Positions 11,998 through 55,689 of a stretch of DNA of 64,000 bases are shown one piece after another. Each line of letters opens with the position of its first letter. Within the stretch, counting starts at the first letter, position 1. The DNA is taken from NCBI GenBank assembly GCA_015680685.1, contig MNCI01002798.1:134701-198700 (forward strand), given 5' to 3'. Source of the stretch: Gnetum montanum. Lineage: Eukaryota > Plantae > Gnetophyta. The translations under genes and the position numbers were made by a program. Under the pieces are notes generated by a model. It was not told where the DNA came from. It did not search any database and was given only the letters and a program-made list of their open reading frames with translations.

Positions 11998-12985
11998 TGT
12001 TGACTTGTTGGTATGTCAAAACCTTAGAAACAATGGAGAATGTAGAAATGTGCTTATAGTCTTGTAGGACCAAGAAATAACATGTTAAGATAAGATTTCA
12101 AAAAGAGAGCTAAACTAAAATGAGAGCTACATTGAGATGTCAAAATGAGAGTTGGGATGATGAGATGAGAACTAGGATGCATATAGACTCTACGAGCCAA
12201 ATGAAGATATTTTGGGGACTACCAAGATGTTGAAATGCTAGAGCCATGATCCAAAATTCAAAGTGGGATTGTAGAGTAAATGTATCCAATTGACAATGGA
12301 CATCTACCTCCTAAGATAAACGTCTACATTTCTAGGTAGGCGTCTCTTATAACTTGAGGTTTATTAAAGATAGACAAATCAACTTCAAATATGATGTCTA
12401 AGCTATCCATTTCATATTTTTTGCACAAATTCCAAGGATTTTTTTGAAACTCAAAGGGTATAAGACAAAGTGAAATTCTTAGAAAATGAGCAACTATTGT
12501 TCATTGAAAAATCTATCCTTCGCTACTCAAAGAGAATTGGATTTTGTTCTTCATTTGAATGTATTTTTTGTAGAGAGCTTCATTACAAGGAATTTGTAAA
12601 TCAAGTTACATTCGTTAATATTTTTCTTTCTTTCTTTGTAGCCCTATAGGGTTGATGTGCTTCTTGCAAGAAAGCACCTTCGTTGAGCTTGTTAGAACCT
12701 TGAAGGGTTGAATGGTTTTGTAGCAACAAAACACTCCAGTGTAAAGCTCATGTTAGTATTTGTCTTGCAAGAAAACACTTTGAGTGGAGCTAAAATCTTG
12801 TAAAGGTTTCCTTGAAACCACATTTTTCTAAGGAACAAAGTCTAGAGGTGTGCAAGGATACCACCATTTAAGTGTAGAGGTGCCTAAGTTGGGAAACTAG
12901 GTAAAAATTATGTGTGATTTTTTGTTGTCTTGGTCATTTTAATTGAGAAACTTATTCAACTCCCATTTTAAGTTCTCTATCCTCA
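11998..12985 (+). repeat. 5' LTR of the copia element
   Basis: TG...CA ends; colinear with 27594-28625. Confidence 0.92.
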
Positions 12986-12987
12986 AG

Positions 12988-12999
12988 TGGTATCAGAGC
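12988..12999 (+). promoter_or_regulatory. Primer-binding site, tRNA-iMet
   Basis: TGGTATCAGAGC, 2 nt after the LTR end. Confidence 0.95.
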
Positions 13000-13041
13000 T
13001 TTGTACTCTCAAGTTTGTGCTTCACCTCTTAAGAGTGAACA

Positions 13042-14250
13042 ATGGAAGGGACATCCTACACCAAGCCGCTAATTTTCAATGTAATTGACTTCATGTATTG
13101 GAAAGTAAGAATGCAAGGATTCTTCCAATCCATGGAATTCAAAGTTTGGGAGTCTATTCTGAAAGGTTATGCACCATCCATTGACAACAACAAATCAACT
13201 AGTAAGCTAAGAAGCAAATGGATGCAAGATGAAAGAGATAAGTTCATGTTTGATTCTAAGGCAAAGAATTATCTTTGTTGTGCTTTGAGAAAATCTAAAT
13301 TTAATAAAGTAGTTGGATGTAAGATTGCTAAAGAAATTTGGAAAACATTAGAAGCAACCTATGAAGGTACATTAGTTGTAAAATAATTAAAACTTCTAGT
13401 GTTGCAAAGTGAATATGAAAAATTGAAAATGAGGGAAGCAGAAAAGGTTAAGGAATACTTCTCTAGGAAAAACTATCTTATTGTAGAAATTAGAGGTACC
13501 GGTAAGGTTCTATCCAAAAGTGTGTTATCATAAAGATGATAAGAACCTTGCAATTCAAATTTAGAACTAAGGTAACAATCATGAAGGAAATTAGAGACTT
13601 TTTAGTGTTGAAATTTGAAGAGCTTCAAAGTGCACTTATTGCATATGATATGAATCTCATTAGTGAAGATGCAATTAAAGAAAAGCCTGTCACCCTCAAA
13701 TATTCATCAAAGGATTAGGAGACACTTGATCAAGAAGCTAATAGTGACGATGAATTAGCCCTCCTATCAAGGAGAGTTCAAGGAATACTAGCTAGAAAAG
13801 GCATAAGCTTTAATCAACTAAGCTCAAATCAGTCTAGCACCAAAGATAAAGAATCTATAAAATGTTGGGTTTATGGTGGAAGAGGCCTTGTGGTCTCCAG
13901 ATGTTCTAGTGTTGGCAAGTTTTAAAATAGAGATTAATCCAAAGCTGAGTCCAAAAAGAACAACTTCTACACTAATTGGGATGATGATCAAAGTGAAGAA
14001 GAGGTAGATGATGCTACAAAGGACTCACATCTCATATGCATGGCCCTCACAAATGGATATTCTATAAAATTGATTGATGAATGTAAAGGTAAAATTGATG
14101 AAAGGTATAATAAATTATGGGAAGAAATTATTACTCTATATTATCTACTTAAAGAGAAAAATAAAAATTTACATAGAAAAATATTTGAACTTTATACTTT
14201 ATGCTCTACTTTGAAAAATAAACTCCTAGATGTAAAAGCTAAGGTTTGAT
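13042..14250 (+). pseudogene. gag: Copia gag pseudogene (DUF4219/UBN2-type N-terminus, degenerate zinc knuckle, coiled coil)
   Basis: MEGTSYTKPLIFN..F.YWKVRM..F...VW..ILKG; AKEIWKTLEATYEGT; knuckle remnant KCWVYGGRGLVVSRC at ~13860. Confidence 0.88.
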
Positions 14251-16390
14251 TACTAACCCACTTGGATGAGAAGAAGTGTAGGGATACATAAGATGTAATG
14301 AGTTAAAATGAGGAAAAGTATTAAATTAGCACAAAAACAACAATCAAGAGGAGGTCTCCAAAAAGAAGGCTTGTATAAGTTCAATATCATCTAAAAGAAG
14401 AAACAAGACTAGGTTTGATAATCCTATCCAAATTAAAGATACTATATATTTTTGTTGTAGAGTATGTGGACATGAACAAGGGTATTATCATCCATATATA
14501 GAGAAAAATAGTGTGACTACTTGTCCTTGTCAAGAGAATTCTAGTAAGTGTATCTTGTAGGGTACAAAAGCATGAAGAACAGATGAGAAATAGAAAGGGA
14601 TAGTCTCTGATGAAATTAAGGGATCAAGAACTATAACTATTAGAAATTATGAGTCCTTGCACTTTGAAGAACATGAACATGACAAAGAAGGAATCTCAAA
14701 TGAGTTTTAGGATACATACAAAAGTTTTGATGAAAGAAAAGGAAATTTGTATGGTAAGGAGGCACTCTATGATTGGAGACCTCATCTCAAACTCTATTAA
14801 TCATGTTCATGCTAGAAAGCAAGAAAGGTAAGTGATGGTAAGTATTTATTCCTTTGCTTGCTAGACATACTGTAGATTAGTTTTTGTTTATAAATATTAG
14901 TAAATAGGAAATTCTTTGGATAGATGCTCTTTGGGTTCTTTGGCCACCAAAGAAAATATTACTTGATCTTCCAAGGTGTTGAGCTACAACATATGACTAA
15001 CAAAAGTTAATGTATATTAATGAAAAATGTCTCCAAGGTAAGGTTTGGTAAGTATTCATCATTTTCTAATATTGAGACATTTGAATACCCATGATGTACC
15101 TTTTATTATTGTTATATAATGGATTGGAAAGTTTTTTATGAATATTGAAAAATCTATGTTTATGTCCTTAATGAGTTCTTGACCAAAATTCTTGAACTTT
15201 TCAGGAAATCTTTCATTTAAAAGAGAATTATTGTTACTACTAATATCCTATGATATTTATCATCTAATAGAGATACTACTAATGAGAGACTTTAAAATTC
15301 AAAAGTCTTCATACTTGATCTTAATGTAACTTTACAAATTTATTAGTGAGATTCAAAAATTTATCTCTACAAAGGTAAGTGACTCAGGTATGATTGATCA
15401 GCCAATGGATACATTACATAAGTTAAAGATTGTTGGTGCTTCTATGAAAGAAATTCCTTGCCAGAAAATAGCTTGAAGATCCTAAAATGCTTAACAGGAG
15501 ATTACCACTCTTTCTACAAAAGATGATTCAAGAAGATAAGAAATATATGTAGGGGAAGCATCAGTGCAGGGGGAGTCTTTGAAGATTCTCCTAGAACATA
15601 TTATTAATGATACAATCCCCTAATCTATAGCACCCTTATAAGGAAACAAGAAAGGAAGAGTATATTCATACCATTATCTGGTAAGTTTATAAAGGTAAAC
15701 GAGTAAACCATTTTTAGGGCAAGATTTAGAATCTTTACTTGAAAATGATCTTTGTTGGCACAAGCTCTTGAACTCTACAAGGTTTTATCAATTTTATTTT
15801 TAAGCACTGTGTTAAGAAATTAATGATACACGTTTAAATTTTTATATGCTTAGACTGTATCATTTTGAGTATCCTATATGATGTATCTAAGGTTCTTATT
15901 ACAAATATGAGTTGTTAAGTACTCACCTAAGGGATCTCAAACACTTTAAATGACATATTAAAGCTAGTAAAGGTATTCATGCTCTCTTTTAATATTGATA
16001 TTTTCTCTCAACATGGTTATCTGAAATTGGTTTATGAACCTTTTGGTAAGGATATGATTGATTATTGTTGATCTTTAACATTTAGCATGATAAGTTATGT
16101 TCTTTGACCTTCATGTGAGATTTGATATATTTCTCAATAATTGATTGTGCATATATTTACTCCCCTTGGCATGGATTTTCTATATCTATTGAATGTGGAA
16201 TATAAATTAAGAAAGGCTTAAAGAGCTTTTGAATAGTATTAGTAATAGATGAAGGCTTTATGATGTGTCCTGATTTTTATCTTTTACAGTCTTCATGCAT
16301 ATTTATCTAGCTCCTTTTAGCATGGATGGTTATGCTGCTTTGATCATTTTGAAATCTAAGCCCTTCAAATGGAAGAGTATCTTACATAGT

Positions 16391-17295
16391 TGATGAGCGG
16401 CTAGGTACCCCTACGCCCAACCATACGAATCATGGATGTTCACATGCAACTTGGTTGAATTCCATAGACTGTAAGCACTTTTCATATACCATAGCCTAAC
16501 CAAAAAAACCCTTTGTTAGAATGGTCATTGTCTTCCCAACCTCACTTGTGATGTTCTAGTGGCAATAGTTAAGTGAGATTGAGGCAACTAATTTTTATGT
16601 CTTTTTACTTTATCTTTTAGCGTCTAACTAAGGTATGGAAAGCAAGGAATGAAATACTATATAATGTATAATTATCCTAATCTATATCTTTAACTATTCC
16701 TAGCATAAGTATCCGATCCCATCTTCCATGCACGTCCCAAGCATCCCCTAACCACTACTGGGCTACCAGACGTTAAGCATCACTGGGCTACCAAGTGTTT
16801 GGTTTACATTCGAGATGGTTGTACTTATGGTATTTATGAACTATAAAGGATCAATAACGATTAAAGTGATAATAACATAAACTCAATGAATGATTAAAAC
16901 ATATAAATATTAAACTAGAAATGCATAGAAATGGATAAGTCCAATTACTATAAGGAATGCTTGAAAAGCTCGTCTTTATTATCATTCACGCCAATGGGCT
17001 TAGGTACATCAATGCTCGAATAAAGATCTAGACATATTTCTTACACCTACTATGGGCACTTGGAGAATATTCTAACTCTCGTGGAAACAAACTGCAATAG
17101 CTTTGCTACAATTAACAAAAAGGTAAATAAGTGTGGTGGGAGCCCACTTATTTATAGGTCAAAAAAGGTGTCACGTAAACGGGGCCATGTCAATGCATGG
17201 GAGGATGCGTCAATGGGGCTATGTCGACACGACCACGTATACGAGGTCCTGTATACATGGCCTAGTAGATGCAGTGATCAACAAACACTTCATCA
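16391..17295 (-). repeat. 3' LTR of element B (905 bp)
   Basis: TGATGAGCGG...CACTTCATCA; colinear with 26072-26980, with differences mostly transitions. Confidence 0.95.
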
Positions 17296-17533
17296 TACCC
17301 CCACGATTGAGTAAAAAATTATCCTCAAGTTCCTCTTACAATTTGGAAGGTATGGACTTTTATTTACAACACATGATTTGACACGTGACACACATACACA
17401 CATGATGCTCCAAGTGCTCGAGTATACAGAGAAGGAAAAATTACAAAAATGGTGGTGTTCAAAGAAAAAATTGAACACCTTGCCAGTCTTGGATTCTCTG
17501 CTGTGTAGAAAGATGCAAAATCATTGGAGAAGA

Positions 17534-20379
17534 TCACACCGTCCCTGGTGGCAGTAGTGCCAACAATCCTTGACTAGCCTCTGGCCCATGTGGTGGTGAG
17601 AGCATGAATGGTAGTTGCCCCACAGTAGCAGGAACTTGTGGAGGCAATCGGAAAGCCTCCAAGAGGGCACACATCTTTTCTTCCTTACTTCTAGGATTGT
17701 TCACTGTCCAAGTAGCTTCACCAGTGTGTGCTGGAATAGGAACCTCCCAAGGGCATGGTAGCGTAGGGAAGTGTTCTGAAGCTAGGCTGTGAACTATTTT
17801 CATTTGATGTCAAATGCTCGAATTGATGTTTGAAGCTACTGGTAGTCATTCATTCAATGGGCCAAGTTCTCTATGATTGCACGCTATCTTTCAAAACTCA
17901 TGCAGAGAACATCAAGTTCCGCATTTTTTTTTTCCAATTTCTACTTTGTTGCTTTGTGTGCTTGGAACTCGCCCTCTTATAAAGAATACGAGATAGCCAC
18001 TTATTTCTCCAAGTTAGACTACGGCCTCCCAGCTGTTAGCATAGCCAGGTTTGCGTAGCAAAGGTTGGCAAGCTCCATATACTCTATCATTTCTTCAATT
18101 TGTAGTTCCTTAAGGTAGATTTCAACTTGATTATAGGCATCCAACCCATCAAAGATAGGGTGCCATATCTCATCTCCTTTTTAAAGCTACTGGAGCACTT
18201 GGTTTATCTTAGCCTTGGAAACTTGAATATACTTCTCATTCACTTCTTTTTGTAATCCCACTTGGTCCCTGTAGTGATTTTTGACTTTTTCAAATTTCAA
18301 GGCCTTGTTCTTCCAAGCAGTGATTTCGATGGGAGATTTCTATCGCAAGGTTTAAACCTCCTCCATGGACAGATTTTAGTGCTTAGTAGCCAACCTTCTC
18401 ACATCAGCATTCATCCTGGCTAGCTGTTCCTACTGTTGGTGAATAAAATTTTTCATGTGCTCGTTTTCAGCACCAACATTACTTAGGTGATGAACCTCCA
18501 CAGTCAATCTAACATTATCCTAGTGAACCTCTATCAAGTCCTTATTTAAATGATATGCATGAGCATCTGTCAAGGACTTATCAAAGATCATTGACTCTTG
18601 GTCATCCTCAAGTATCAGCAGTTTGATCTGAAGCTATTGAAAAGCTTCGTCACGAGTGAGCTCATGGCTGAGGAGAGCTGGATTGACAAGTTAGGCTCTT
18701 AATTGAGCAACTTATAACACCAAGCATTGAAAGTTAGCTTGATTAGCTTCAAGTTACCCTTCCACGATAAGGCTTTTACCCCTTGCCGATAGCAGCTTCG
18801 AATGGATTGTAGTGATGTTGTCCGAAAGGTTAAAGACATCCAGAAGTGGTTTCTTGGTTCCCACCAGTGGGTCCAATAGTTTTTCATGTTGTGTTGCATC
18901 AATCTTGCTACGTGAAGTTCTAATGAATTCCTGTACATCTTGAAGTCCATGTATGTTTGGTGTAGCTGCCGCGAGAGCATTCAAAGTCGTAGTAATTATA
19001 TCAGCAACCACTTCGACCGCAGTCTCCTGTCCTTGGTGTTGCATCACCAGGACCGTCACCCCCTCACCATCTTCCAGGCATACCGAGAAGGTAGCAACAT
19101 TTCCTAAGATTTCAAGGAATAGCTGTTGAGTGGATATAGTTACCTCTCAGATGCCAGGATCTGTTCTTGTTGGTACTTGCGTTCGAGTGGCAAAGAACAT
19201 CGACCCTGCCCTTTCTAGAAAACTAATTGATTGAGCCACTTATTTGAAATGGCTCATGGTAGGGCAATGGACCAAAGGGTCTTCTTCTTCACCAATCCTT
19301 CTAGACTATTCTTGCTAGCTCAAGAGCGATTGTTGGATATCGTGGATGTGTTCAGTAATAGTTTGCGAACTCGACCTCATTGTTTGTGTAGGTGGTGAAG
19401 GCTATTTCTACTCTTCCTCAGCATGTGTAGTGGCAAGAGTCTTATCCTTCATCAGTTTCCTCCATGAGGCAATTGGGGCATGCTGAAGTGTATCATTAGC
19501 ATATCATGCTATCCCTGCTCGTTTGCATAACTTTCTGATTAGGCAAGAAAAGGGGAGAGCTTGTCTTCCATGTTCTCTTTCGATGAACCTCTTTTCAATT
19601 TCCAAGAATAACAACTGTGGAAGAATCATGGAAACTTTCCCACTTAGGGTGGCACACGAACGAGTGGAGAAGGCCATAATTTTGCTAGGTCTTATTTTTG
19701 GGTTTAGGTGATAAGATGCGATCTTTGAATACACCCTCTCCATGGTGGTTAGAGAGCCGAAATCCTTGTGGTCTACCCCATAGCACCACTTGATCCACTC
19801 CACTTTTATCTTAGGGTCTGCTTATTTTGGGATCTCTGCCACATATGCTCCAGTATCTAGCAACCCCAGAGCTTATGCTATTGCCTCTATAGTGTAAGAG
19901 ACATAGATGTCTTTGATCCTTACCCTGGACCCCAGTTGTCGATGTTTCCAAAAGAGATAGGTTTCTCCTATGCACCATTCACCACTGGTTGTGATGATCA
20001 GCCACATAGGGGAATTTTGCAATTGAAGTCTCATGTGTTCTGGTGCATTCTCGAGAAATGGTCCAAATTTTAGCTCTTGTAGGACCATCTGTTGCACTTC
20101 TCCCAGCTTGATAGCATCAAGACAGGCTTGGGTCAGGGTGACCTCAAGCCATGGTACTATTCCTAGGGTTTCATCCCCTTGTGATTGTCCACTGGGGATC
20201 ACCTCTTTGGGAATCTGATGGACAGATTACATATTAGGTTCTTCGCAGAGGGGGCTAGTTGCATGAGAGCCCTCTACATGCTCTGGTTGCTGCACACCTC
20301 ATCCCCTTTCTATTCATGGATGCTTCTCCTTCAGTTTTGATGGTCCTTTGTCCCTTGGATGCCTTGGTTTTGGTGCCAT
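17534..20379 (-). pseudogene. Extra ('env-like', ATHILA ORF-1/putative plant transposon protein-like) ORF of element B, about 950 codons, interrupted
   Basis: Starts MAPKTKASKG; ORF fragments 19873-20202, 19504-19803 (LPQLLFLEIEKR...LPFSCLIRKLCKRAG), 18754-19059 and 17534-17803; coiled-coil-like C-terminal half. Confidence 0.85.
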
Positions 20380-21734
20380 TTGCAATCAAACATAACCACC
20401 CATTAGGTTGTACATATGTAGCTCAAGATGGTCCTTATACACTTTCTTAGTTCGACTAAGTTATGTTGTTCACATGGGCATTCCATTAAATCCATCAAAG
20501 TGTTATTTCATTGGTTAAAGCAAAAAAAAAAATCAAGGGATAAGTTAAAGTTTAAGCTATTTTTTTGTTTCTTCCCCTTAGAGGTGTGATGTATTAGTTA
20601 ATTAATTAATTACACATAGGCTTCACCCCCAATGACTGAGAGCATACCTTTGAGTGCTTAATTGGGCTAGGATCGATTGATGCAGACGTGCGAGAGAACG
20701 TAGGTGCTTGGGAAGAAGTTAGGTAGAAAAAATGGCAAAATATCCCTCCAATTTGTGTGCAAAATGATGAAAAATCAAGCACAATGGGCATATATATAGG
20801 GATTGGGCATTGTGTCGATGGGGCCATGTATATGTGGCTGCGTAGACATAGGGGGCTACATATACGAGGCCCTGCATATGCAGGTGGTCACACCCATTGA
20901 CTAGCGTTGACCAGCCTAGAAAAAGCCCAAAAAAATAAATTGAAAATGAAAAATTGGGGCAGTTGAAGAGCGTAAGAGACTGGGAATGCAATCGAGGACA
21001 TGAGGAAGGTAAACCAGGCTAGAAAAAGAGTCAAACATAGGAAAAACGAACTCCATGGGGGAGAAATCGAGCGATGGGGGGCTTAACAAATGAGATCAAG
21101 AATATGCAAGTGGATCCTCCCCATAGTAGGCGATAGCCTTAATAGCCCTTGCATAGCCTTAACACTAGAGTCTGTGGGCTCCGAGATTAAGAAATGGTAA
21201 TCGAAAGTTAAGAAGACCATCCAAGTGAACCTGCCAAGGCATGAGAAGTCCATGGAAACCACGGTGAACTCTCAAAATGTAACACAGGTAGTGAGGTAAG
21301 TTACGGAGAGAAATGGATGAAGAGAAAGACGAGAGAATGGGAATTCCGATTATCAAGCACATGAAACTTGGTGTGCAATTATGGTTAAGTGACCTAGTAT
21401 GACCTTTTCTAGGTTCAAACCCAAAACCATCTACATATAGTGACATCTCAGCAACAGGAGAAACCCTGACCATTCCCCAAGTAGATAGGAATGCACCCAC
21501 AAAGAACCACCACTCCAAAAGATGTGAGAGGAAGGAAGTGAAATAGGACTAAGTTAGAGGGGACGAAGAAAGTCCCATAACTACTACTTGTGGCCTGTGA
21601 GAGGTAGTCTAAGGGGTGTGCTTTGAATTCGCTCATAGCAATGATTTTATTTTTTATTTTCTTGTGATTTCATGGGAACCACACCATGCAAAGACCCATG
21701 CTTCTTTGCATGCATTCGACCAAGGGATGTGCTT

Positions 21735-24700
21735 GGTTGTCGAGTGATTCCTTGGATGACCCTAATCTATTCAAGATCTACGCTAATCCCTATCTGCAAG
21801 ATACGATGCCCCAGCACAATGCCTTCTTGGACCATTAAATGGCTTTTCTACCAATTGAGCCATAGATTAGTGTCTACAAACCTTTTCAGAACTTGCTCAA
21901 GGTGGTCCAAGGCTTCCTCGAATGTGGTCCCATAGGTAGAGAAGTCATTCATGAAGACTTCTATCCCATTGCCAATTTTTTGCTAGAAGCTGCTGAGGAC
22001 AAGGCATTGGAATGTGGCAGGTGCATTACATAGGCCAAAAGGCATCTTCTTGTATGGAAAAGTCCCCCATGGACTTGTCAAAGTTGTTTTGGCCTGGTCC
22101 TCTGGTGTAATTTGAATTTGGTTATAGTCATTATAACCATCCAAAAAGCTGTAATAGTGGTGCCTTGCAATAGTATCCAACACTTGGTCCACAAATGGGA
22201 GTGGGAAGTGATCCTTGAAGGTAGCCATGTTGAGAAATCAGAAGTCTATATAGACCCACCATTTTTCACCTTTCTTTGACACAATAATAAGTGGGCTGAC
22301 CCATTCGCTAACGACAATAGAATAGATGAACCCCGCCTTTAGCAACTGCTCCATTTCATCTTTGATGACCTGCTTCAGTTTGGGGTTCAATCACCTTTGT
22401 GGTTGTCGCCGTGGCTTCATGGAGGGGTCAGTATAGATCCGATGTTGGTAGACCCTAGGATAAACTCTAGTTAACTCAGGATATGACCATGAAAATGCAG
22501 CATCCCATTTGTTTACCACCTTCAACAATTTTTTTTTTGTTCAGGAGCAAGGGTGGCATTGATAAATACTGGCTTCCCATTTTGCAAAAATGCATATTCT
22601 AAGTGGGCCGGTAAGGTCTTGAGCTCCAGGGACTCTTGTTTAAAGCTTTTAGGGATTTGCAGCTTTCCCTAATCATCATGGTTATCAAATGTGAAGACCT
22701 GTTGATGAACCTCTTCCATTTCATCCATGCTTTCTACGTAGGCTCGTACAAGCCCCTCTGATGGTTCCATGCACAATGCATTGCTAGCAGGATTAGCTAT
22801 CAGCTACTGGGAACCCTCTCGATTGGTGGCTACTACGTATAGGCACTGTTGAACTGACGATTCTTCGGTACATTGATTGCATGCTTGAATGGATATCCGC
22901 TTAGCATACCATAACTACTGCACACAGTTGCACCCTGAGTCATTGTATGCAATGCATGGAATGCACTTCTTCTCGATCTTTTCAAAATTATTTTTTATTG
23001 AAATTTCAAGGGAGAGATCTTGGAGTCCTAGTCTTGCATCCACCATGCTCAGCCAGGCTCTTCCCATTATGATAGGAAAGTTCCCCTTATAATTCTCCAC
23101 TCGGATGACAAGGAAATCAGTAGGATAAGACCACCCAAAAATGGTGGTCACAATGTCCTCCACCAATCCCAAGGGAATGGTGATGGATTGGTCTGGTAGC
23201 TCGAGCCAAATGTTGCTCTTTTTTAATGGGGGTAGGTTCTAGTTCTTGTACATGTCATGTGAAATCAAATTGACACTTGACCCCGAGTCCAAAAGAGCTT
23301 TACATGGCTCATTCCCTACCACCTGAAGATAGATGAGGGGGCTTCTTGGATTAGTTAATTTTCTAGGAAGATGCCTTGCCTTGATCTAGTCGGTCACACC
23401 ATGTGTGAGCATGATCATTTGTACATTGGAGGATAGTTGGTTTGAAGGCTACTCGAGTGGTGGAACAGTGGAGGTGGTTTGAAGTTTAGAGGCACAAGCC
23501 ATAGGTGGATGTGAGAGTGTGCCTACATTATTAGGCCAAAAGAAGGGACATTTCTATGGCTTGGCTTCTGGTCCACCCGGATGAGGAGTCGGTTGTAGGT
23601 TGATAGCCCTCATAGCATTACATTGCTGTGGCTATGGTGGAATTTCTCCCTGCATAGGTGGAGAAGGTGATAGCTGAGTGGGATGTTGCAGAGAAGGAAT
23701 GGTAGGAGAAGGTGATGGAGGATAGTAGAGATGTGGGCTTTCCCCCCTGGGTGATCAAGATTGAGGTTAAAAATATTTCGGGGGTGGTAATAACTTTTAA
23801 AGGCCGCATGACTGGAAGAGTTCTGTGGAGAGATCGGTTGTTGAATGTAGTACCCATAGGGATCTTTCTATTTGTAAGGGTACTGTTGCCTTGGAGGTGG
23901 CATCCCCCATGCTTATGGATGTTGCCATTTCTAGAAGTATTCATAAGGTTGTGGTGTTGCTCCACTATAATAATATCCTTGTTGTTGGTGGAACTGCCTT
24001 GGGTTGCCTTGTGGGTAAGGCAACCTTCGGGGTGTTTGCCTCTTCGCCAAGAGAGGATTCAATGCGTACACCCCAGACTCTTGAAGATGTGACACCATAG
24101 GAAAAAATCCCTTAGGATGTTCATATTGGCATATGCCAGATTCATCATCCTCCTTGATGTCAGAGTCTGCAACCTACTCTGCTACAACAACTTTGCCCTT
24201 ACCCTTATGTTGGGCACATTCAGCTTCCCTCTTCCTATGCTGATCACAATCATTACCTTATTCTTTGGACTCTTCTACAATTTTTAGCACACTTTGGAAT
24301 TTTTTGTTCAAAGAGTCCCACATCTTATCAACCTTTGCCAATATGTTAGATGCAAAATTTTGTAAGGGCAAGGTTTCTTGGTTCATCACTACTTCCAATG
24401 GTGATTCTTTCTCCTCTTCACAGAATTGGACCTCCCTCTTTTTGATGGAGGGATCTCGATTAAATTCCTTTGCACTCTCCTTCTTTCTGAGTTCCCCCTC
24501 TTCTTTGGCAACCTGCTCAATGAGGCATTGTAGTTGATGGGCCCTTAGTTCTGATAACCGTCCATGGGCGTACACACCAAGGATCTTTCACGTTTCAAAG
24601 CAGAGCCCATCAATGATATGGTGAAGCTGTGCTTGTTGAGAGTAGCCATGACCAGGGAACTAATGTAATAATGAATAGTACTTACTCATGGCTACGTCCA

Positions 24701-26071: not shown

Positions 26072-26980
26072 TGATGAGCGGCTAGGTACCCCTATGCCAA
26101 ACCATACGAATCACAAGTGTTCACATGCGACTCGATCGAATTTCATAGACTATAAGCACTTTTCATACACCAAACCCTAACTAGGAAAACCCTTTGTTAG
26201 AACACTCATGTTCTTCCCAACCTCACTTATGATGTTCCAATGGTGATGGTTAAGTGAGATTGAGACAACTGATTTTTATGGCTTTTTACTTTATCTTTTG
26301 GCATCTAATAAAGTAAGGAATGAAATACTATATAATCTATAATTATCCTAATCTATATCTTTAACTAATCCTAGTATAAGTATTTGATCCCATCTTCTGT
26401 GCACGTTCCAAGCATCCACTAACCACTACTAGGCTACTAGACGTTAAGCGTCGTTGGGCTACCAAGCATTGGGTTTACGTTCAAGATGGTCATACTTATG
26501 GTATTTACGAACTATAAAGGAGCAATAGTGATTAAAGGGGTAATAACATAAAATTAATGAATGATTAAAACATATAAATATTAAACTAGAAATGCATAGA
26601 AATGGCTAAGTCTAATTGCTACAAGGAATGCTTGAAAAGCTCATCTTTATTGCCGTTCACACCAATGGGCTTAGGTACATTAGCGTTCGAATAAAGATCT
26701 GAACACATTTCTTACACCTACTATGGGCACTTGAAAAATATTCTAACTCTCATAGAAACAAACTACAAGAGCTTCGCTACAATTGAAGAAAAGGTAAATA
26801 AGTGTGGTAGGAGCCCACTTATTTATAGGCTGAAAAAGGTGCCGCATAAATGGGGCCACATTGACGCATGGGAGGATGCGTCGATGGGGCCATGTATATG
26901 GGGCCATGTCGATGCGGCCGCATATACGAGGTCCCATATTCACGACCTAGTAGACGCAACGACCAACAAACACTTCATCA
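26072..26980 (-). repeat. 5' LTR of element B (909 bp)
   Basis: TG...CA ends; TATA box (CCTATAAATA on - strand) at 26820-26829. Confidence 0.95.
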
Positions 26981-44959: not shown

Positions 44960-46905
44960 GAATGAAAACATTTTTTAAGTATGTTTTTTTTGGTTCTGAA
45001 TGTCTATTAAGCTCAAATTTTTTATAGCAATTCTTTTATTTTCTTCTTCAAATGCAATGATAGCCTTAGCATGGGCATACATTTGAGCATTTATAACTGA
45101 AGCATTCCACACTACATTATCTTTTTCTATCTCCATATATTTTTTCTTGGCCATCAATTAATCAATTTGTTCATTTCTAAATCGGGCCAACTAGTCTAGT
45201 ACAATGTGTCATGTAGGATCTTATCTATCATCTCTCAATTCAGCTAGTTCTTCTTGTAGTCTCTGCACTTTACTCTTCTTGTGTTTCATCTTAGTTTCTA
45301 CCATGACTAGCTTGCCTTTGCCAAATATTAATTCTAACTACAATGTAATGATATCACTAGGGATATTAAAAATATTCTACATAACCTATCATGTATGCAT
45401 CAATCTTTCCAACATGTCTTCATGTTCAACAAGGGATATAATTTCCTTTCTTCAGGTTCCATCTAATATCTCTACATCTATAGCTCTATAAATATCTATT
45501 GATGGCATGACAAAAACATTGAATGAATCTTTTATATGGTCATTTATTATTTTTTCTACTTGTACTACATCTTGGCATTGCATCACTACTATAATATCTT
45601 CTTCTCTAGTTTCTAACATCTTCAAGAATGATGTAGCATTCCCAAAAATTTATTGTACCCAATCATTAGTCTTTCTTGCCTACAAAGATATTTGAATACT
45701 AGTAGGTATTGTGGGCATTGTAGGTCTACTTGGATTATTCCTTACTCTATACATACTCAAGACTTCCATGTTGTACCAAGTTATTATTTTTGCTATCTAT
45801 TGTAAGTGACTCGTGAAAGGTTTGTAGTCTAGCTATGTTGGTGGAGCACTCTGTCCTACTCACTTTGCAATTGGGGTTGACCCACTAGGTCCTACCTATT
45901 TTGTGCATATAATTGGAATATTTACTATTGATGTTGATCCTATTGTAACTTTAGTGCCTACTAGTTTCTCTACTTTATCTTTCTTGGATGGCACTAACTT
46001 GGAGATTTTTGCATATAAGGCATTTTGAGCTTTTTGGAGGACATCATTAGTATAGCCAAAAATTCCAATTTGTGTACATAACTTCCTAATAATATGAGGG
46101 AATGGAAGAGTGGGTTTCCCTATCTTTCTCTCTTCAAACCTTCTTTGTATTTCCAAAAACAAGAAATGGACTATGTTAGCTTGGAATTTCCCAATTAATA
46201 TAGCACTTCCTCTAGCAACATAGGTGGAAATTTTGTTAAGTATTTTATTTGGGAAGATATGGTATGTTCAAATATTGAAATATATATTTTTTACAATGGA
46301 TAATGCATTATAGTATTTGTATGTAGTTCCATATGTCCTTTGAAACCATCAATTTCTCACATCTATGTCAAACTATGTGGAGATTTGAGTAATGTTGGCT
46401 CTAGAATTTGATATGTTTAATGCTCCTTTGATTACCTCAATTGAATGTGGCACTATCACTCCTTCAGTTTTCACTATTGCATCTTCTTATTATTTTTAAC
46501 AAAATTGATGAAATTACCCCAAATACAATTTACCATTACTTGAAATGATTAGATAGAGTGGTGAGGTTTGGAGTTGTTCATGGATCTTTGCAAATGCGAT
46601 CTCCATGAATGAACCAAAGTTAAGTTCCAATAGCATGGTGGACATGATGGAATTTTCCTAGATGGCCTATATACAATCATTGGAGAGTGTGTAGTGTTGT
46701 CCTTATTTTGGAGTAGGTGGTGCATTAACTTTTACCTATGTAGATTATATTGTTATAGGTGTAGGCTGATGGATTGGGCATGACTATGCCTCTTGCTTCA
46801 TTGGAGGAGTTTTTTTTGCACCTTATACTCTTCCTCTTCCTCTAAGCTTCTTTTCCCTTAGTCATGATGGTTCCCCCTAGCTTTGGGTATTCTCTTTGGT
46901 AGCAT
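44960..46905 (-). pseudogene. Extra ('env-like') ORF of element D, truncated
   Basis: ...TAATTATAG|ATG start (MLPKRIPK); LFLEIQRRFEERKIGKPTLPFPHIIRKLCTQIGI; coiled-coil-like fragment 44975-45157. Confidence 0.8.
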
Positions 46906-47580: not shown

Positions 47581-47963
47581 CTTTGAAATTTTTGATATTT
47601 TTGTGAAATTTGATTATAAAAAATTGAAGAAATGGATAGTGTGGAAGGTGTAAAGATTATCCAAATGGTTTTTGATCATAGATGATGTTTAGAATGTGAG
47701 AATTTAATGTCAAAAATATGTTAGCGAAGGAGTTTGGGTAAGGTAAGTCAACTAAGGTTTAGGAGATGATTTAATCAAAATTGCTAAACTTATGAGTAAG
47801 TATGAAGATGTAGGAAAATAATAATATTTGCCAAAGTATCTCAAAGGTACAAGATGATGTCAAATGTGTCATCAACTATGAAACACAAGACTTAGTCAAG
47901 TGGATCCTCCCCAAAGTAGACTCTTGCCCTTAATGCCCTTGTATAAGCACACCTAAAAGTGTC

Positions 47964-49750
47964 AGCGACAACAGCGACGGCAGCGACAGCAATGACGGTA
48001 GCGACGGCAGCGACGGCAATGACAGCAGCGACAGCAGAGACAACAACGACGGCCACGACGGTTGCGACTGCTACAATGGCTGCTACGGCCGCTACGGTCG
48101 TCACAGCAGCCACTATGGCGGCCGCTACGGATGCAACTATGGCTGTTGCAGACACGGCAGCGTCTATGGCGGCAGCAACCACGGTCGCGATTCAGGCGGC
48201 CACGACAGCTGACACCGTGACCCCCACGATTATGGCCATAGAGCTTCTTGGGACGGTTGCAATCACGGCCGCAGTAACCTCGGCGACCACTGCACCGCGC
48301 GGGGCCATCGAGGCTCACTCCCGTTCCAACCACACCTTGCACCTTTGCATCCGTAACCCCCCTACCGACGGCGTGCGCACCATGGAACGGAGCCTCATCG
48401 GTCGTTTCATCTCCCGGGGGAGCTGCCCCCAGCTCAACCTGATACGGCGCTGGGTTAAGGAGCAGTGGAAACTGGAGGGAGTTACCGTCCGGAGCCTCTC
48501 GGAGGATCTGCTCCTCTTCGTCCTCCCCTCCCTACAGGCCCATGACTCCGTCCTTCTCAGTAGATCTTGGTTCTATGGGGCCCGACATCTCACATTGACC
48601 CCTTGACGCCCCGGTGCCCATAGAGAACCCGATTTGTTCACCTGTGCCCCTGTTTGGATCCGGGTGGCCGGTATCCTGTGGGAGTTATGGAGCCTTGAGT
48701 TTCTACGGGAGGTGGTGGGACATTTCGGTGAGTTCATCACCTTCGACCGGGTCACGCGGTCACTGGACAGGTTGGGATATGCCCGCTTCTGTGTCTGGCA
48801 AAGCCTGGCCACGATCGACCTTGTCCGGGAGGTCGTCTTGGAACTTTCGGGGGGCGAGGAATCCCTCCAAGTTACCTACAAAAACCTAGATGGTGGGGAC
48901 CAGTCCATGCACAGCCCGACCCCCCGCATGGACCGGCCGGGGGGGGTGCAGCTACTGTGGTAAGCTGGGCCACCATGAGGTAGACTGTCATTTTTGCAAG
49001 GCCTGCTCAACTAACCCTGCCTGCCAGCTTTTCGAGGAGGGCAACTGGGTCACCATGGCCCGTAAGGGGTGACTATGGCCCCCACCCTACCAACCCCCCC
49101 ATGCCCACGCCCCCCCAAGGCCCCGCCCACCACCCCCCACCCCCACACAGTGCCTTCCTCCCACACTGCCCCCCCTACATTCCCAACCTCCCCCCACCCC
49201 AACTACACCCCCCTCCCCTCACTCTCCCATGACCCCCACTCCCAATCCAACCTCCCCCCCCTCGCCAGGGCACCTACCAATGACCCCCCGTGCCAAGACC
49301 ACCCCTCCCTCTTTCCCCCCCTCGTCCCCCCTGCACCCCCCCGCTCCCTCTCCCCCATCACCACTAGTCGCTCCCGCCCCCCCTCATGCCTTCCCACTAC
49401 TCCCCCACATTCCCTCTCCCTCGACACCATCTACGGGTCCCCCGTTAGGACACCTCATCGCTCCTAATCCTCGGCCCCTATCCCCCCACCCCAACCTCCC
49501 GAACCGCAACCAATGCTCCCCCCACTGGGGGAATGGGTCAACGTCGTTCGAAGGAGTACCCGGACTAGATAGTGCAATGCACCACCGTCCCCCGCTTAGG
49601 AGATTGGCTGCACCCCTATGGTCCGTGAGGGGGAGGGACGCCCAGGCCGCCCGACCGCGTCCCGCTCCAGAGGTCGACAAGCCCAGCGTCACATTGACTT
49701 GGGTCAACAACAGACATTACGGGAGTTCTACCAGCGCCACCCCTCTGGTT
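47964..49750 (+). pseudogene. ORF1: LINE ORF1 (Ala/Thr repeat, DUF4283/RRM-like domain, CCHC knuckle, Pro-rich tail)
   Basis: SLIGRF...W..QW..W.YGARHLTLTP*; PVWIRV..I.WELWS...L..G.F..RLGYAR; CSYCGKLGHHEVDC at ~48947-48990; one stop (48604) and a frameshift in a G run. Confidence 0.9.
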
Positions 49751-49754
49751 GCAC

Positions 49755-52700
49755 ATGAAGATTCTCAGTTGGAATTGCAGGGGGTAGGGTACCCCCTATA
49801 AACAAAATACCCTGCGCAATATTATCCGAGAGGAAAATTGTGACGTGGTCTGTCTTCAGGAAACCAAGCTGCAGGCTGCGGAATCCGGTCATCTCCAGTG
49901 GACGGACTGGACCACATACCTGCACCCCAGCTAGGGCCGGGCCGACGGCCTGGCCATTCTTGCACGATAGGCTTCTACTCTAGTGGATGCCTCCTTATGG
50001 ACCATCACGATCCACCTCCACGCCCATGGATTTTAGCTGACCAATTTCTATGGGGCGCAGGCGTGGGAGCTACAGCTCCAGGAGTTGAATCGGGTGGCCT
50101 TGCTGGTGCCGGACCATAGCTCTTAGGTGGTTGTCGATGACATCAATCAGCGTTTGTACCCCTGGGAGAAATCTGGGGGGGCCACCCCCCGGGTGCGCCT
50201 ACTTTCATGGAGTTCCTTGAGCGCTCGTCTCTTGTTGATTTGCCCATTGCGAACTACCGTTTTACCTGGAGTAACAGGCGGAAAGGGGCGCACCGGGTTC
50301 TCACCCGCATTGATCGTGTTTGTGTGAGTTCTGCTCTCCTCCTTAGCGCCGCCATCACCGTGGCCGGGCAAGAGCAGGCTGCTTCTGACCACTGCTCACT
50401 TGTGGTATCTATTGGCCCATCCCCGCCCCAGGCCCCACGCCCTTTTCGGTTCGAACCTTCATGGCTATCCAAGCCGTGGCTTTGCCCGCTGGTGGAAGAC
50501 ATCTGGGCCGATTACCAACCGGGTCGGATGGACCCTCGGACCTTCCTCAAAGAGGCTCTCCATCGGCTCAAGTGGGCCATCCGGGCCCTCCCGGTGGGGG
50601 AGAAGTTTTCGTTTCGGGCTAGCCACAAGTTGGTTCGGGCGTAGCTCAGATGCATCCTGACGCAACAAGAGAATGGGGAGGACCTGCACACGGAGGAGAT
50701 GCACCTCCTTCGCCAACTCCAGAGTCTCGACAGCGAGGAGGAGCTTTATTGGTGGTAGTGATCCCGGGTTAGATGGCTCCGCGAGGGGGACCGGCATACG
50801 AAATTCTTCTTCGCCATGGCAAAGACCCGGGGCGATACCCACATTCGTAGCATCCGTTCCCAGGCTAGGGTGGTGGTTGCTGATCCGCAGGGGATTGCCA
50901 ATGAGCTCTCAGACTACTGGGGGAGGATTTGGGCTAAGCACACCACCCGACCCATCTCCGTCCGTGTGGCGAAGGTGCTTACGGCTGCAGACAATCAACG
51001 CCTTCTGGCCCCCTTCTCCGAGGCCGAATTGACCACCACCATCAACAACATGCCAGGCGGTAAAGCGTCGGGTTCGGACGGCTGGTCTCTGGAGTTCTTC
51101 AAAGCTTTTTTGGACATTGTGGGCCCCAATCTCCTGGATGCTTTCAACGTCATGCTGCCCAGACGGCAAGTATGACGCGAAATCAATTGCTCGCGCATCA
51201 TCTACATCCCCAAGCAACTGAATGCACACCACCCAGAGCACTTTTGCCCTATTGGTGTGTGCAATATCCTCATCCGCATCTTCTCCAAACTTCTGGTCAA
51301 TCACCTAGGCCCCCTCCTGCCTAAGTTGATTAGCCTCAATCAGGTGGGCTTCGTCCAGGGTAGGACCCTCCAAGACCAGGTTCTTCTTATGCAGGAGGTC
51401 CTTCACTCCCTCCGTGCCACGGGGTTTCCGGGACTTTGTCTCAAGCTTGACATCACGAAGGCCTACGACACACTTAGCTGGGAGGCCCTTCGTGACATCA
51501 TGCATAGGAAAGGTTTTGACCCTGGATTTATCCAGCTATGTGTGCATCTCCAGTCCTCCGCCGAGTTCTCTTTTGACGTGGGGGGGCAGCTTTGGGGCTT
51601 CTCCTCCCCTGGTCGAGGTCTGAGGCAGGGTGACCCCCTGTCTTCTTTACTTTTCATCATTGCCATGGACCTCCTGCAATCCTACTGTCACGCCTCGGGG
51701 GGTGGAGGGCCTTGACATTGCGGGGGTGGCTTGCCGCGTTGAGCACTACGTGGACGATACCATGCTTCTTAGCAGGGCGGCGGTCCCGCAGGCCCGGTGT
51801 ATCAACCTGGCTCTGTCCAGATTGGCTGCCGAGTTAGGCTTAGAAATCAACCGCACCAAGTCGGCGGCGCACTTCATTAATGTGGACTCGTAGGTGCAGC
51901 ACCGGGTTACATAAACTCTGAACGTACAACCAGGGAAGAACACCGATACCTACCTGGGTATCCCGCTATTCTAGTGGGGGCAGAACAATTCTTGGACCCC
52001 CTCCTGGCCAAGCTTGAGCACCGCATCAATCACTGGGCAAACCGATTTATTACGCGTAAAGGCCGCCTCCTCATGGCCAATGGGATCCTTGCGGCCATCA
52101 CGTGCTTTGTGGTGGCGGTCGCCGTGCCCCCCGTGGCCATCATCCACCAGATCAATGCCTGGATCCGTGGTTTCCTGTGGCGGGGGGGCAAAGGGGGGAG
52201 CAAACTCTATCTTGTCAATTGGCATCGCGTGGCTCATCCTCGTACGGAGGGGGGGTTGGGGGTCACGATGTTCGAGGATGAGTGTGCGATGGGGCAACAA
52301 CGGTTGGTCTGTCGGCTCACTCGTGCTCGGGGGGAGTGTAGTCAGTGGGGCCGTATCGTTCACCGGAAGTACACACTCTGGATGTCTGGTTCGCATGTTT
52401 CGAGGCCTTGGATGACTCTCTGCCAGCACGTGCGATGGATGTTGAATCTGAACTAGATCCACCTCGAGCTACGTGCCCTTTTGACCCATAAATACCCCCT
52501 GAGGACGGTTGGATGGCGGTTTGGCGCGGGCGGCTCCCCGAGAAAGTAAAAATCTTTCTCTGGTTGCTCAAATCCGCCGCACTCCCCGTTCGTGTGTTCT
52601 TGCAGTAGAACAGCATCATGCAGGACCGCATGTGTCGGCGTTGTGGCCACGACCCCGAGACCCTCAACCACTTCATTTATGACTGGCGCACATGCAGAAG

Positions 52701-52825
52701 ATCCCCCCCCCCCGCGGCAATTTTACGGCGATTCCTGGTCGGCGCTTTTACTTTGGCACGCCTGGAAGGCGTGGAATCGCACGGTTTTTACTCAGGCGGC
52801 TACCCCCCAGCAACTTATCCAGTAG
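49755..52825 (+). pseudogene. ORF2: LINE ORF2: APE endonuclease, reverse transcriptase, zf-RVT
   Basis: MKILSWNCRG, CLQETK, FTWSN, RIDR, SDH, PFRFE, WLREGDR.TKFF, KASGSDG, LKLDITKAYD, GLRQGDPLS, HYVDD, YLGIP, EGGLG, CRRC..DPETLNH, WHAWKAWNRTVF. Confidence 0.95.
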
Positions 52826-54100
52826 ACTCACCGGGCGTGGTGTGAGATTGTGGCCGCTATGGGGCAGACGCCGACGTACGAGCCTGACTGCGTGGACTTC
52901 CAGGCGGATGAGGAGCTGTGGCAGATGGTTTGCCAATGCGGATGGGACGCCCTACTGCAGCAGCTGGTCGGGGACCCTGACCTACCTGACAACTCTTTCT
53001 TTACCAACTGGTGTGGCGATCAAACCTTCTTCCGAGGCCGTGTAATTCGCCTGACAGAGGCTGCTCTGGCCAACTACCTGGGGATCTCAACCGTTGGGGA
53101 GATCATCCTGCCAACCTCCCGTGGCCTCCATAACTCTACGACCTTTTTCGAGGGGTTTTCCCCGAGAACGTAGAGCCGTCAGGTCCCTCGGACGTCCCTT
53201 CCGTGCCTCTGGGCTCATACAACCGTCTTGGTCAAACGCTTCTTTGTGCAGTCAGGGAATGTGTCCAAACTCTAGGGGCTGCATTTCACCTTCCTGCGGT
53301 GCTTGAAGGAGGGCACCCAAGTAAACCTACCGCGTCTCTTCCTCGAGGCCCTCCGCCTTCAGTGGTGGGGTCATCGTTCGGGACTTATTTTGGCCCTGTG
53401 GAGGGGGGCAGGGGGCACCAGGCCCATCCTCTGCCCCCACTAGGGGCCGTTTCGCTGACCCCCCTGCTTCCCCCCCTTCCTCCACTCAACGACGATGGGC
53501 CGCTCTCCATCTTTCCTGGGGCTGCCGCTCCCACCGCAACCCTGCCCTCTCACCTGACCCCCCCTGCGCCCCCCCACATTGGGAGGCGCAGCTTCAATAG
53601 GCAGTTGCTGCGGCTCAGGAGGCCGTGCAACGGTCCTCGGAGAATCAGTGGACCGAGGCCCTGGCCAAGTGGCGCGCCGACCACGATGCCCAGCTTCAGG
53701 AACAAGCACAGCAGCTGAATAGGCAGCATACGCTCGCAATGGAGACCTTGCATGCCCAGCTCATGGATGAGCTTCGGGACCGGATCAGGGAGGAACTGCG
53801 CCAGGAGGAGGCGGATCGGCAGGCCTAGGAGGCGGCGGCTCGAGAGGAGTAGGAACGTCTGTAGGAGGAAGAGGTGCAACGGCAACAACAACTCGACCGG
53901 GCGCATCAACACAGCGTCCGCCAGTGGCTTAGGGGGGGGGGCGCTGCCCGTATAGCATCCTTGGAATTAGCTGTAAGAGCTCCTGGGGGGAGCTTAGACG
54001 ACACATCCGGTGCACCTCCGCTAGATTCCACCTGGATGCGAGGGATTCCTCGTCGGACCGGCATAGGCGTGAGGCTCTTTTGCAGGGGTTTCAACAGGCT
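52826..54100 (+). pseudogene. Extra LINE coding module (ORF2 C-terminal extension or ORF3): Athila extra-ORF-like domain, Pro-rich linker and coiled coil; right end approximate
   Basis: Same frame as the ORF2 end: GWDALL...FFTNW...FRGRVIRLTEAALANYLGI...VSKL*GLHFTFLRCLKEGTQVNLPRLFLEALR...SGLILALWRGAG, then a Q/E/R-rich helix (53580-53930). Confidence 0.7.
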
Positions 54101-55689
54101 GCTAACTTCGTGGACACAGAGGACCATCGTGCCACCCTGGACCTGCTCCATGAGTTGGAGTTGCCTCGGTGTGCCTATCACTAGCTGCCGACCCACCCCT
54201 ANGGCCGCCATGTTGGGGGTCGGCCGGGTTTTTTTTCTTGATCTTTTGTGGGTTTTTGGGGACCCCCCCTCTTCGGGGTGGGCCACCCCCACTTGTACTT
54301 GTATACTCGTGTACCATTCTTTCAGTAATACATTCCCAAACATTCTCTCAAAAAAAAAAGTGTCCATGGGCAATCAAGGAGTTGAAAGTAAATCATCATT
54401 CTCTTCCAAACACACATGTTAGTATTGTTCCAATAAAAAAATAACACTATATTATAAAATACCATCAAGTTGTAATTATATATAACCTTGAGGTGGAATG
54501 GTAGTAGTAGGGATTGTAGAAAATGGAACACGAGGCCTCTTACCATAAGCATAATGACTTCTATGTGTAATGCATGATTAAAGTGATTATTCGCCTATTC
54601 GTCCAAGATCCAAACCAAGTCCATGTCACTTACTAGTGATATCACATTGTATCATTCTAAAACTAATAATAGTAATACTATTAGAACTACAAGAAATATC
54701 ATTTCTTGGCAATGAAGAACAAGAAAGCAATTTATTAACTACATAGTTTATTTTGAAGAGGACTTGGCCATTAGATAAAGGAGTGTCTTTAGGCATAGGT
54801 AACATATCTTTCAAGCCTTGTAACCGATGTAAGTCTAAGAAACCTTCAAATTTCTAAGAAGTTACCTATCTTTAGGCATGGATAACATGTCTTTCTCGTG
54901 GAACCCCCAAAAAAATTTATTATGTATATTTATTATGTTATTACTATGTTAACCTTACAAGAGGACTACCTTCATGCATAGGTAACATATCTTTTTAGTG
55001 ACATGGTAAGGTAGCACTTATTTTAGAACATACTTCCATTTTTTATTAAAACTCAAGTAAATAATACAACTTAATAACATAATAAGATTCATAGTAGTAG
55101 CTTTAGAGAATCCAAAAATTCCCTTGATGTCACACCATTTTCATTCACTTCTTGTTCCTTACATTTTCATCTGAGCATAATGATCATAAGTTTATTTTAG
55201 TTGTATTGTGAAAAAAAATGTCATTATGTCCATGGTAAGAATCTCTTATTATTATAAATAAGTGGATGGATGATGTGGTCTCACTGTATATACAATCAAT
55301 CCTTTAATAATTTGATAACATAGGATGAAATTTTTATTCTTTCAACTACATCTTGCTTATTCCTTTACACTTTATTAGAAAAATCAACAAACACTATGTA
55401 CATGAAAAATAGTAAAATTATAAAAAGAATGAAAGATATGTAATGTATAAAGAACTTGGAAGATAATAAAAAATGAAGAAATAATAAGATATATGAAAAA
55501 TATGAAAGAATAGAAAAGATATTAAAGAATGTAGAAAAATGGTAAGAAAGTTAAGAAAAATCTAAGAAAATGTAAAAAGATTATTTGGTGCCTAAGTAGG
55601 AAAGATGACACCCCCATGACTATTATCTAAGGTAGAAATTTGGAAGATTGAATGGAAAGTTAGTGGTTTGGAATACATGGTAGATTTTC

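Follow-up and report, generated by a model that had tools for sequence, protein, structure and literature searches.

In plants, the second open reading frame (ORF2) of L1-clade long interspersed nuclear elements (LINEs) normally ends soon after the zf-RVT domain or continues into RNase H. Here, we describe an L1-clade LINE that differs in that coding sequence extends for about 1.3 kb beyond zf-RVT. It lies in a 64,000-nucleotide stretch of Gnetum montanum DNA (contig MNCI01002798.1, positions 134,701 to 198,700, forward strand), the whole of which we call the window. The extra sequence encodes an accessory module (a PF20167-related globular domain, a linker, a predicted coiled coil, and a C-terminal tail) that is present across the LINE family and is kin to extra ORFs borne by Ty3/gypsy elements. 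Our preferred reading, to which we give a probability of roughly 40%, is that the module acts as an oligomeric DNA-binding anti-silencing factor of VANC/PMD fold, captured long ago.

According to what PMC5203782 reports, DUF4283 is the dominant ORF1 domain of plant L1 elements, and the present element resembles them in its DUF4283/zinc-knuckle ORF1, its ORF2 domains, its target-site duplication, and its poly(A) tail. Besides the extra coding sequence, it is set apart by the lack of an RNase H match and by 9-base units arrayed at its 5' end. Captured C-terminal domains are already known from other LINEs, and the element is a new form of plant L1. Insect R1/TRAS LINEs, as PMC4686597 presents them, carry a viral SF1 helicase at the ORF2 C-terminus that is proposed to counter silencing; they are alike in bearing a foreign C-terminal module but unlike in host kingdom, LINE clade, domain, and donor. 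Extra ORFs are, in the accounts of PMC7264820, PMC11728184, and PMC12844716, common in plant long terminal repeat (LTR) elements and of unknown function, and PMC11728184 describes a sunflower Athila 14 ORF(+) with PF20167 and a predicted nuclear signal. The role of such "env-like" extra ORFs in plant Ty3/gypsy elements has been a standing question for more than twenty years. A search of an open-access library, which takes in neither subscription journals nor Repbase, brought up no plant LINE bearing the module.

The GC-rich island (about 0.6 GC) that we analysed is a full-length but decayed plant L1-clade LINE, whose parts are the following.

47955..47963 (+): 5' copy of the target-site duplication, 9 bases, identical to 54356-54364
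47964..54355 (+): full-length decayed L1-clade LINE, about 60% GC, inside a high-copy AT-rich repeat
47963..48215 (+): 9-base units rich in CG/CHG, tandemly repeated at the 5' end and decaying; candidate target of the accessory domain
48427..48994 (+): ORF1 with DUF4283 and a frameshifted zinc knuckle, then a Pro-rich stretch (PF14111 E 6.5e-21; zf-CCHC E 0.031)
49797..50009 (+): ORF2 apurinic-type endonuclease, N-terminal part (PF03372 E 5.6e-07)
51236..51962 (+): ORF2 reverse transcriptase, frameshift near 51697 (PF00078 E 6.2e-17 and E 3.7e-04)
52507..52789 (+): zf-RVT (PF13966 E 1e-10) and the W..WKAWNRTVF motif (from translation)
52823..52825 (+): TAG between ORF2 and module, where ORF2 either truly ends or once had a Gln codon that decayed
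52859..53410 (+): globular domain of the accessory module, related to PF20167/Transposase_32 and predicted to fold like VANC; premature TAGs at 53171 and 53273
53411..53579 (+): Pro-rich linker with at least one frameshift and homopolymer runs, true frame unsure (three-frame translation)
53580..53930 (+): predicted coiled coil, Q/A/E/R/L-rich, in a frame other than that of the domain (composition; crude heptad score 0.81)
53939..54184 (+): C-terminal tail, about 80 residues long, whose cysteines and histidine are spaced C-x9-C-x8-H-x2-C (53942-54010)
54350..54364 (+): poly(A) tail, merging with the target-site duplication (3' copy)

This architecture is solid. The element combines endonuclease, reverse transcriptase, and zf-RVT in ORF2 with DUF4283 in ORF1, a poly(A) tail, and a target-site duplication, as expected of the L1 clade, and PF03372, PF00078, PF13966, and PF14111 each exceed their own Pfam cut-off. 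In four of four sequencing runs, contigs joining 47956 to 54358 mark other copies of the surrounding repeat in which the site is empty. No RNase H was found after zf-RVT: even with E allowed up to 10, the next 233 residues match none of the Pfam families, and the segment scores on the profile of a different family (see below). The earlier note on this DNA had read zf-RVT, the tryptophan motif, the TAG at 52823, the low-complexity linker, and a Q/E/A/R-rich helical segment correctly, together with the high GC that module and LINE share and all seven TAG positions. The indel behind the frameshift near 51697 is also seen in other copies. The C-rich, Pro-coding end of ORF1 (49066-49530) is thinly covered by contigs from other copies and is likely hypervariable or hard to assemble.

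The module spans about 440 codons from ATG 52859, between zf-RVT and the poly(A) tail. Beyond TAG 52823 another 205 codons (52826-53440), with two further TAGs among them, follow in the frame of ORF2, so that a continuation of about 400 codons in a single frame, as first proposed, holds for its onset but not for the coil. Since the coil lies in another frame, at least one frameshift falls among the G and C runs at about 53400-53580. The coil has four premature TAGs of its own (53598, 53826, 53850, and 53862). Further on, the G run at 53932 differs by 2 bases in other copies (12-23 contigs per run), which restores the ORF2 frame for an 81-codon tail ending at TAG 54182, past the end of the interval given in the earlier note. 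The continuation looks coding, because its GC by codon position (0.59/0.46/0.71) is close to that of the main ORF2 segment (0.60/0.44/0.67) and all six in-frame stops of domain and coil are TAG, also the commonest premature stop of the ORF2 core (9 of 13). The cysteines and histidine of the tail are a possible zinc site. The tail has no Pfam match and only atlas matches under 0.9, and no family was found for it; it may resemble a SINA/TRAF-like zinc finger.

Words from the module occur in eight sequencing runs of three studies, four of which, under four organism labels, were mapped, placing 12,722-22,246 contigs per run on the element and its flanks. Taken as a rough measure, the summed contig depth of the module relative to ORF2 is 1.15, 1.08, 1.09, and 0.69, and the bin that immediately precedes the junction (52551-52781) is low in every run. 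A one-off transduction is excluded, and the claim that the module is no recent transduction from the neighbours is supported. It is likely colinear with ORF2 in most copies: among the 24 of 4837 loose contig ends listed, none falls at the ORF2/module junction. None of the contigs listed spans 52823, nor is that position among the 40 of 951 difference sites listed. These 40 include two non-synonymous sites in the domain. At domain position 35 nearly all other copies have Arg, where the homologous family has 93% K/R, and at position 160 nearly all have Phe, where it has 84% Phe. Two sites are few, but both lean in the direction expected under purifying selection.

The kinship of the globular domain is visible only through its relatives. 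Scanned directly, the LINE domain matches no Pfam family, PF20167 included, and word-indexed protein searches gave no matches (weak evidence). Of the six matches from exhaustive phmmer, one is an ORF on a Welwitschia transcript (39% over 89 residues), two are gene models of Ginkgo, and two are proteins without a name. The sixth, a fungal repeat protein (P0007), was rejected as spurious, having no score on the family profile. A profile search brought in 76 proteins. On a profile of 57 domains, built without LINE or Welwitschia rows, residues 13-176 of the LINE sequence (P0001) score 57.3 bits over profile positions 3-166, whereas the best of 2000 shuffles reaches 2.5 bits; the profile members were collected by LINE-seeded searches, a bias that cannot account for this gap. 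PF20167, in turn, is matched by 24 of 42 family members (best E 2.8e-06), all under its gathering cut-off (45 bits, against 27.8 bits for the best relative), and family member P0011 falls among PF20167 clusters in the atlas. The kinship to PF20167 is, in other words, transitive, and the proposal of a transposable-element accessory domain of PF20167/Athila-ORF type plus coiled coil is borne out family-wide.

The genomic settings of the homologues tell where such domains usually reside. At 11 of 80 homologous loci a gypsy integrase lies 1.0-2.3 kb upstream on the same strand, and the relatives are accordingly, for the most part, 3' extra ORFs carried by Ty3/gypsy elements and arranged as in Athila. 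A further 59 loci have no reference match, and the remainder have gypsy or copia matches in other arrangements. No L1 domain was found near any of the 80, which does not mean that other LINEs lack the module, as the query was of the LTR-type subfamily and the contigs are mostly short. Scans of metagenome, viral, and prokaryote collections with the LINE domain or its Welwitschia relative found nothing. Like the LINE module, Athila-type 3' extra ORFs (PF20167 is related to PF03078, ATHILA ORF-1) have the homologous domain first, then a linker and a coil. The LINE module is unlike them in sitting on a non-LTR element, in its identity of 15-26% to LTR-borne rows, and in forming, in a tree of 65 rows, its own long-branched clade with the Welwitschia transcript (support 99/86). 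The simplest reading is that the capture is old and took place in gymnosperms, with host lineage, donor, and direction inferred.

Several relatives deserve a word of their own. Three gypsy-type extra ORFs of 900-1040 residues (L005:3-3113, P0038, and P0039) combine the domain with repeats of Thr-Gln-Glu-Pro, a pair of predicted coils, and a CxxC motif. They also have a large C-terminal domain that matches nothing in Pfam and recurs in L022:2747-4177. L008, L025, L027, and L068 have the domain 3.8-8 kb ahead of gag or reverse transcriptase on the same strand, either as a 5' extra ORF or in a neighbouring element. In Ginkgo, many annotated "genes" belong to this extra-ORF family, and P0009 contains the domain twice.

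The window itself holds three Athila-like extra ORFs.

17534-20379 (-): Athila-like extra ORF with a long C-terminal part and predicted coil
about 45900-46660 (-): Athila-like extra ORF, 34% identical to the first
about 10007-10684 (+): Athila-like extra ORF

The LINE domain had been said to mirror these ORFs, but no significant likeness to them emerges: tblastn gives no match, BLASTP E 0.97, the ORFs score negatively on the profile of the LINE-domain family, and hhalign reaches 20.3 where 40 column-shuffled controls reach up to 22.4. The two that were scanned match PF20167 weakly (E 1.3e-04 and 7.6e-04), and in terms of sequence the link is only indirect, through such weak matches on both sides.

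What the module may do is suggested by its predicted fold, which weakly resembles VANC21 (PDB 9LNK) over the whole domain at 11% identity. This DNA-bound protein is the only structural neighbour found, and the predicted link is suggestive; it lends weak structural support to the earlier guess of an anti-silencing or chromatin role. Foldseek against PDB and viral sets, including a re-examination of six chains, returned nothing, and a single-sequence model (pLDDT, the predicted local distance difference test, 37.8) served as control only. Among known systems, VANC21 of VANDAL21, grouped with the PMD proteins MAIN/MAIL1, is like the module in the weak whole-domain structural match and in a coiled coil, and its element is like the LINE in carrying 9-base tandem units in a likely non-coding region. 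VANC21, however, has no sequence-profile link to the LINE domain, belongs to a Mutator DNA transposon of eudicots, and has an AT-rich motif, whereas the LINE array is GC-rich. DUF1985 and PF10536 are absent from the Pfam matches of the 42 family members at E up to 0.05.

The array is clearest at 47963-48050 (period 9, 9.8 copies, 75% matches) and decays onward; contigs from other copies cover it as well. Although one frame stays open through it into ORF1, it is likely 5' untranslated region, because its ATGs look like deaminated ACG. Its CpG observed/expected ratio is 1.14, within a range of 0.54-1.14 for the LINE, against about 0.3 in neighbouring gypsy elements and 0.1 in the flanks; we do not count this milder depletion as support, since youth would account for it equally well. 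Under the preferred reading, an L1 lineage likely acquired the module long ago from a Ty3/gypsy element, where it was the 3' extra ORF; its globular domain would bind a short DNA motif, and the coil would multimerise the domain on repeats of that motif. The target would be the element's own array of CG-rich units, so that an internal promoter would be kept open and shielded from silencing.

The best-surviving rival, which we nevertheless consider unlikely, is a chromatin or DNA tether at the C-terminus of the ORF2 protein that steers insertion, e.g., into heterochromatic LTR repeats. The studied copy did insert into a high-copy repeat, but a single insertion is uninformative on site preference. 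The tether further depends on how the module is translated. We put fusion to the ORF2 protein at slightly better than even odds and a separate ORF3 from ATG 52859 at slightly worse. For fusion speak the shared ORF2 frame and 11 spacer codons without another stop; moreover, 26% of the CAG-or-TAG codons in the ORF2 core are now TAG, one listed ORF2 stop is a Gln codon elsewhere in the family, and with four such codons at the junction, decay of one or more has a chance of about 0.7. For ORF3, and so against the tether, speaks the N-terminal Met-Gly of the family (92% Met, 87% Gly), which falls exactly on ATG 52859 in the alignment; P0006, the closest homologue, also begins there and carries the label of a complete ORF. 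Programmed read-through at TAG 52823 was considered and rejected, as the downstream bases do not fit the CARYYA read-through context.

Next, and a shade more doubtful, comes a functional module acting on RNA or as a scaffold (ribonucleoprotein assembly, host-protein contacts). Similar roles have been proposed for uncharacterised LTR extra ORFs, several basic columns are altered in the studied copy, and PMC13547354 models Athila-domain and VANC proteins as coiled-coil pentamers with many host contacts; yet the sole structural neighbour found is bound to DNA. That the module is a mere passenger, which arose by 3' transduction long ago, multiplied along with the LINE, and has since lost its function, is improbable. 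The entire studied copy is decayed, as a passenger would be, but neutral DNA would not keep such a domain: it is retained whole from its Met despite its distance from LTR-borne kin, its codon-position GC is ORF2-like, and other copies show the residues typical of the family. Very improbable is a membrane or movement protein of true env-like kind, as the "env-like" label implied, for although relatives sit at the env-like position of gypsy elements, the module has no transmembrane segment (highest hydropathy over 19 residues 1.14) and, to our knowledge, LINEs form no particle.

A particle-free LINE that keeps an Athila-type module argues against an envelope role for the class. More boldly, and with greater doubt than attaches to the preferred reading, the LINE may encode a VANC-like sequence-specific anti-silencing protein along with its own target array, and the Athila/PF20167 "env-like" class may be a VANC/PMD-fold module that moved among Mutator, Ty3/gypsy, and LINE elements. 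If the anti-silencing role holds, a very large plant genome harbours a LINE that encodes its own counter-defence, and three classes of transposable elements have exchanged a module.

Elsewhere in the window, a short imperfect palindrome at 26877-26958 is GC-rich within AT-rich surroundings.
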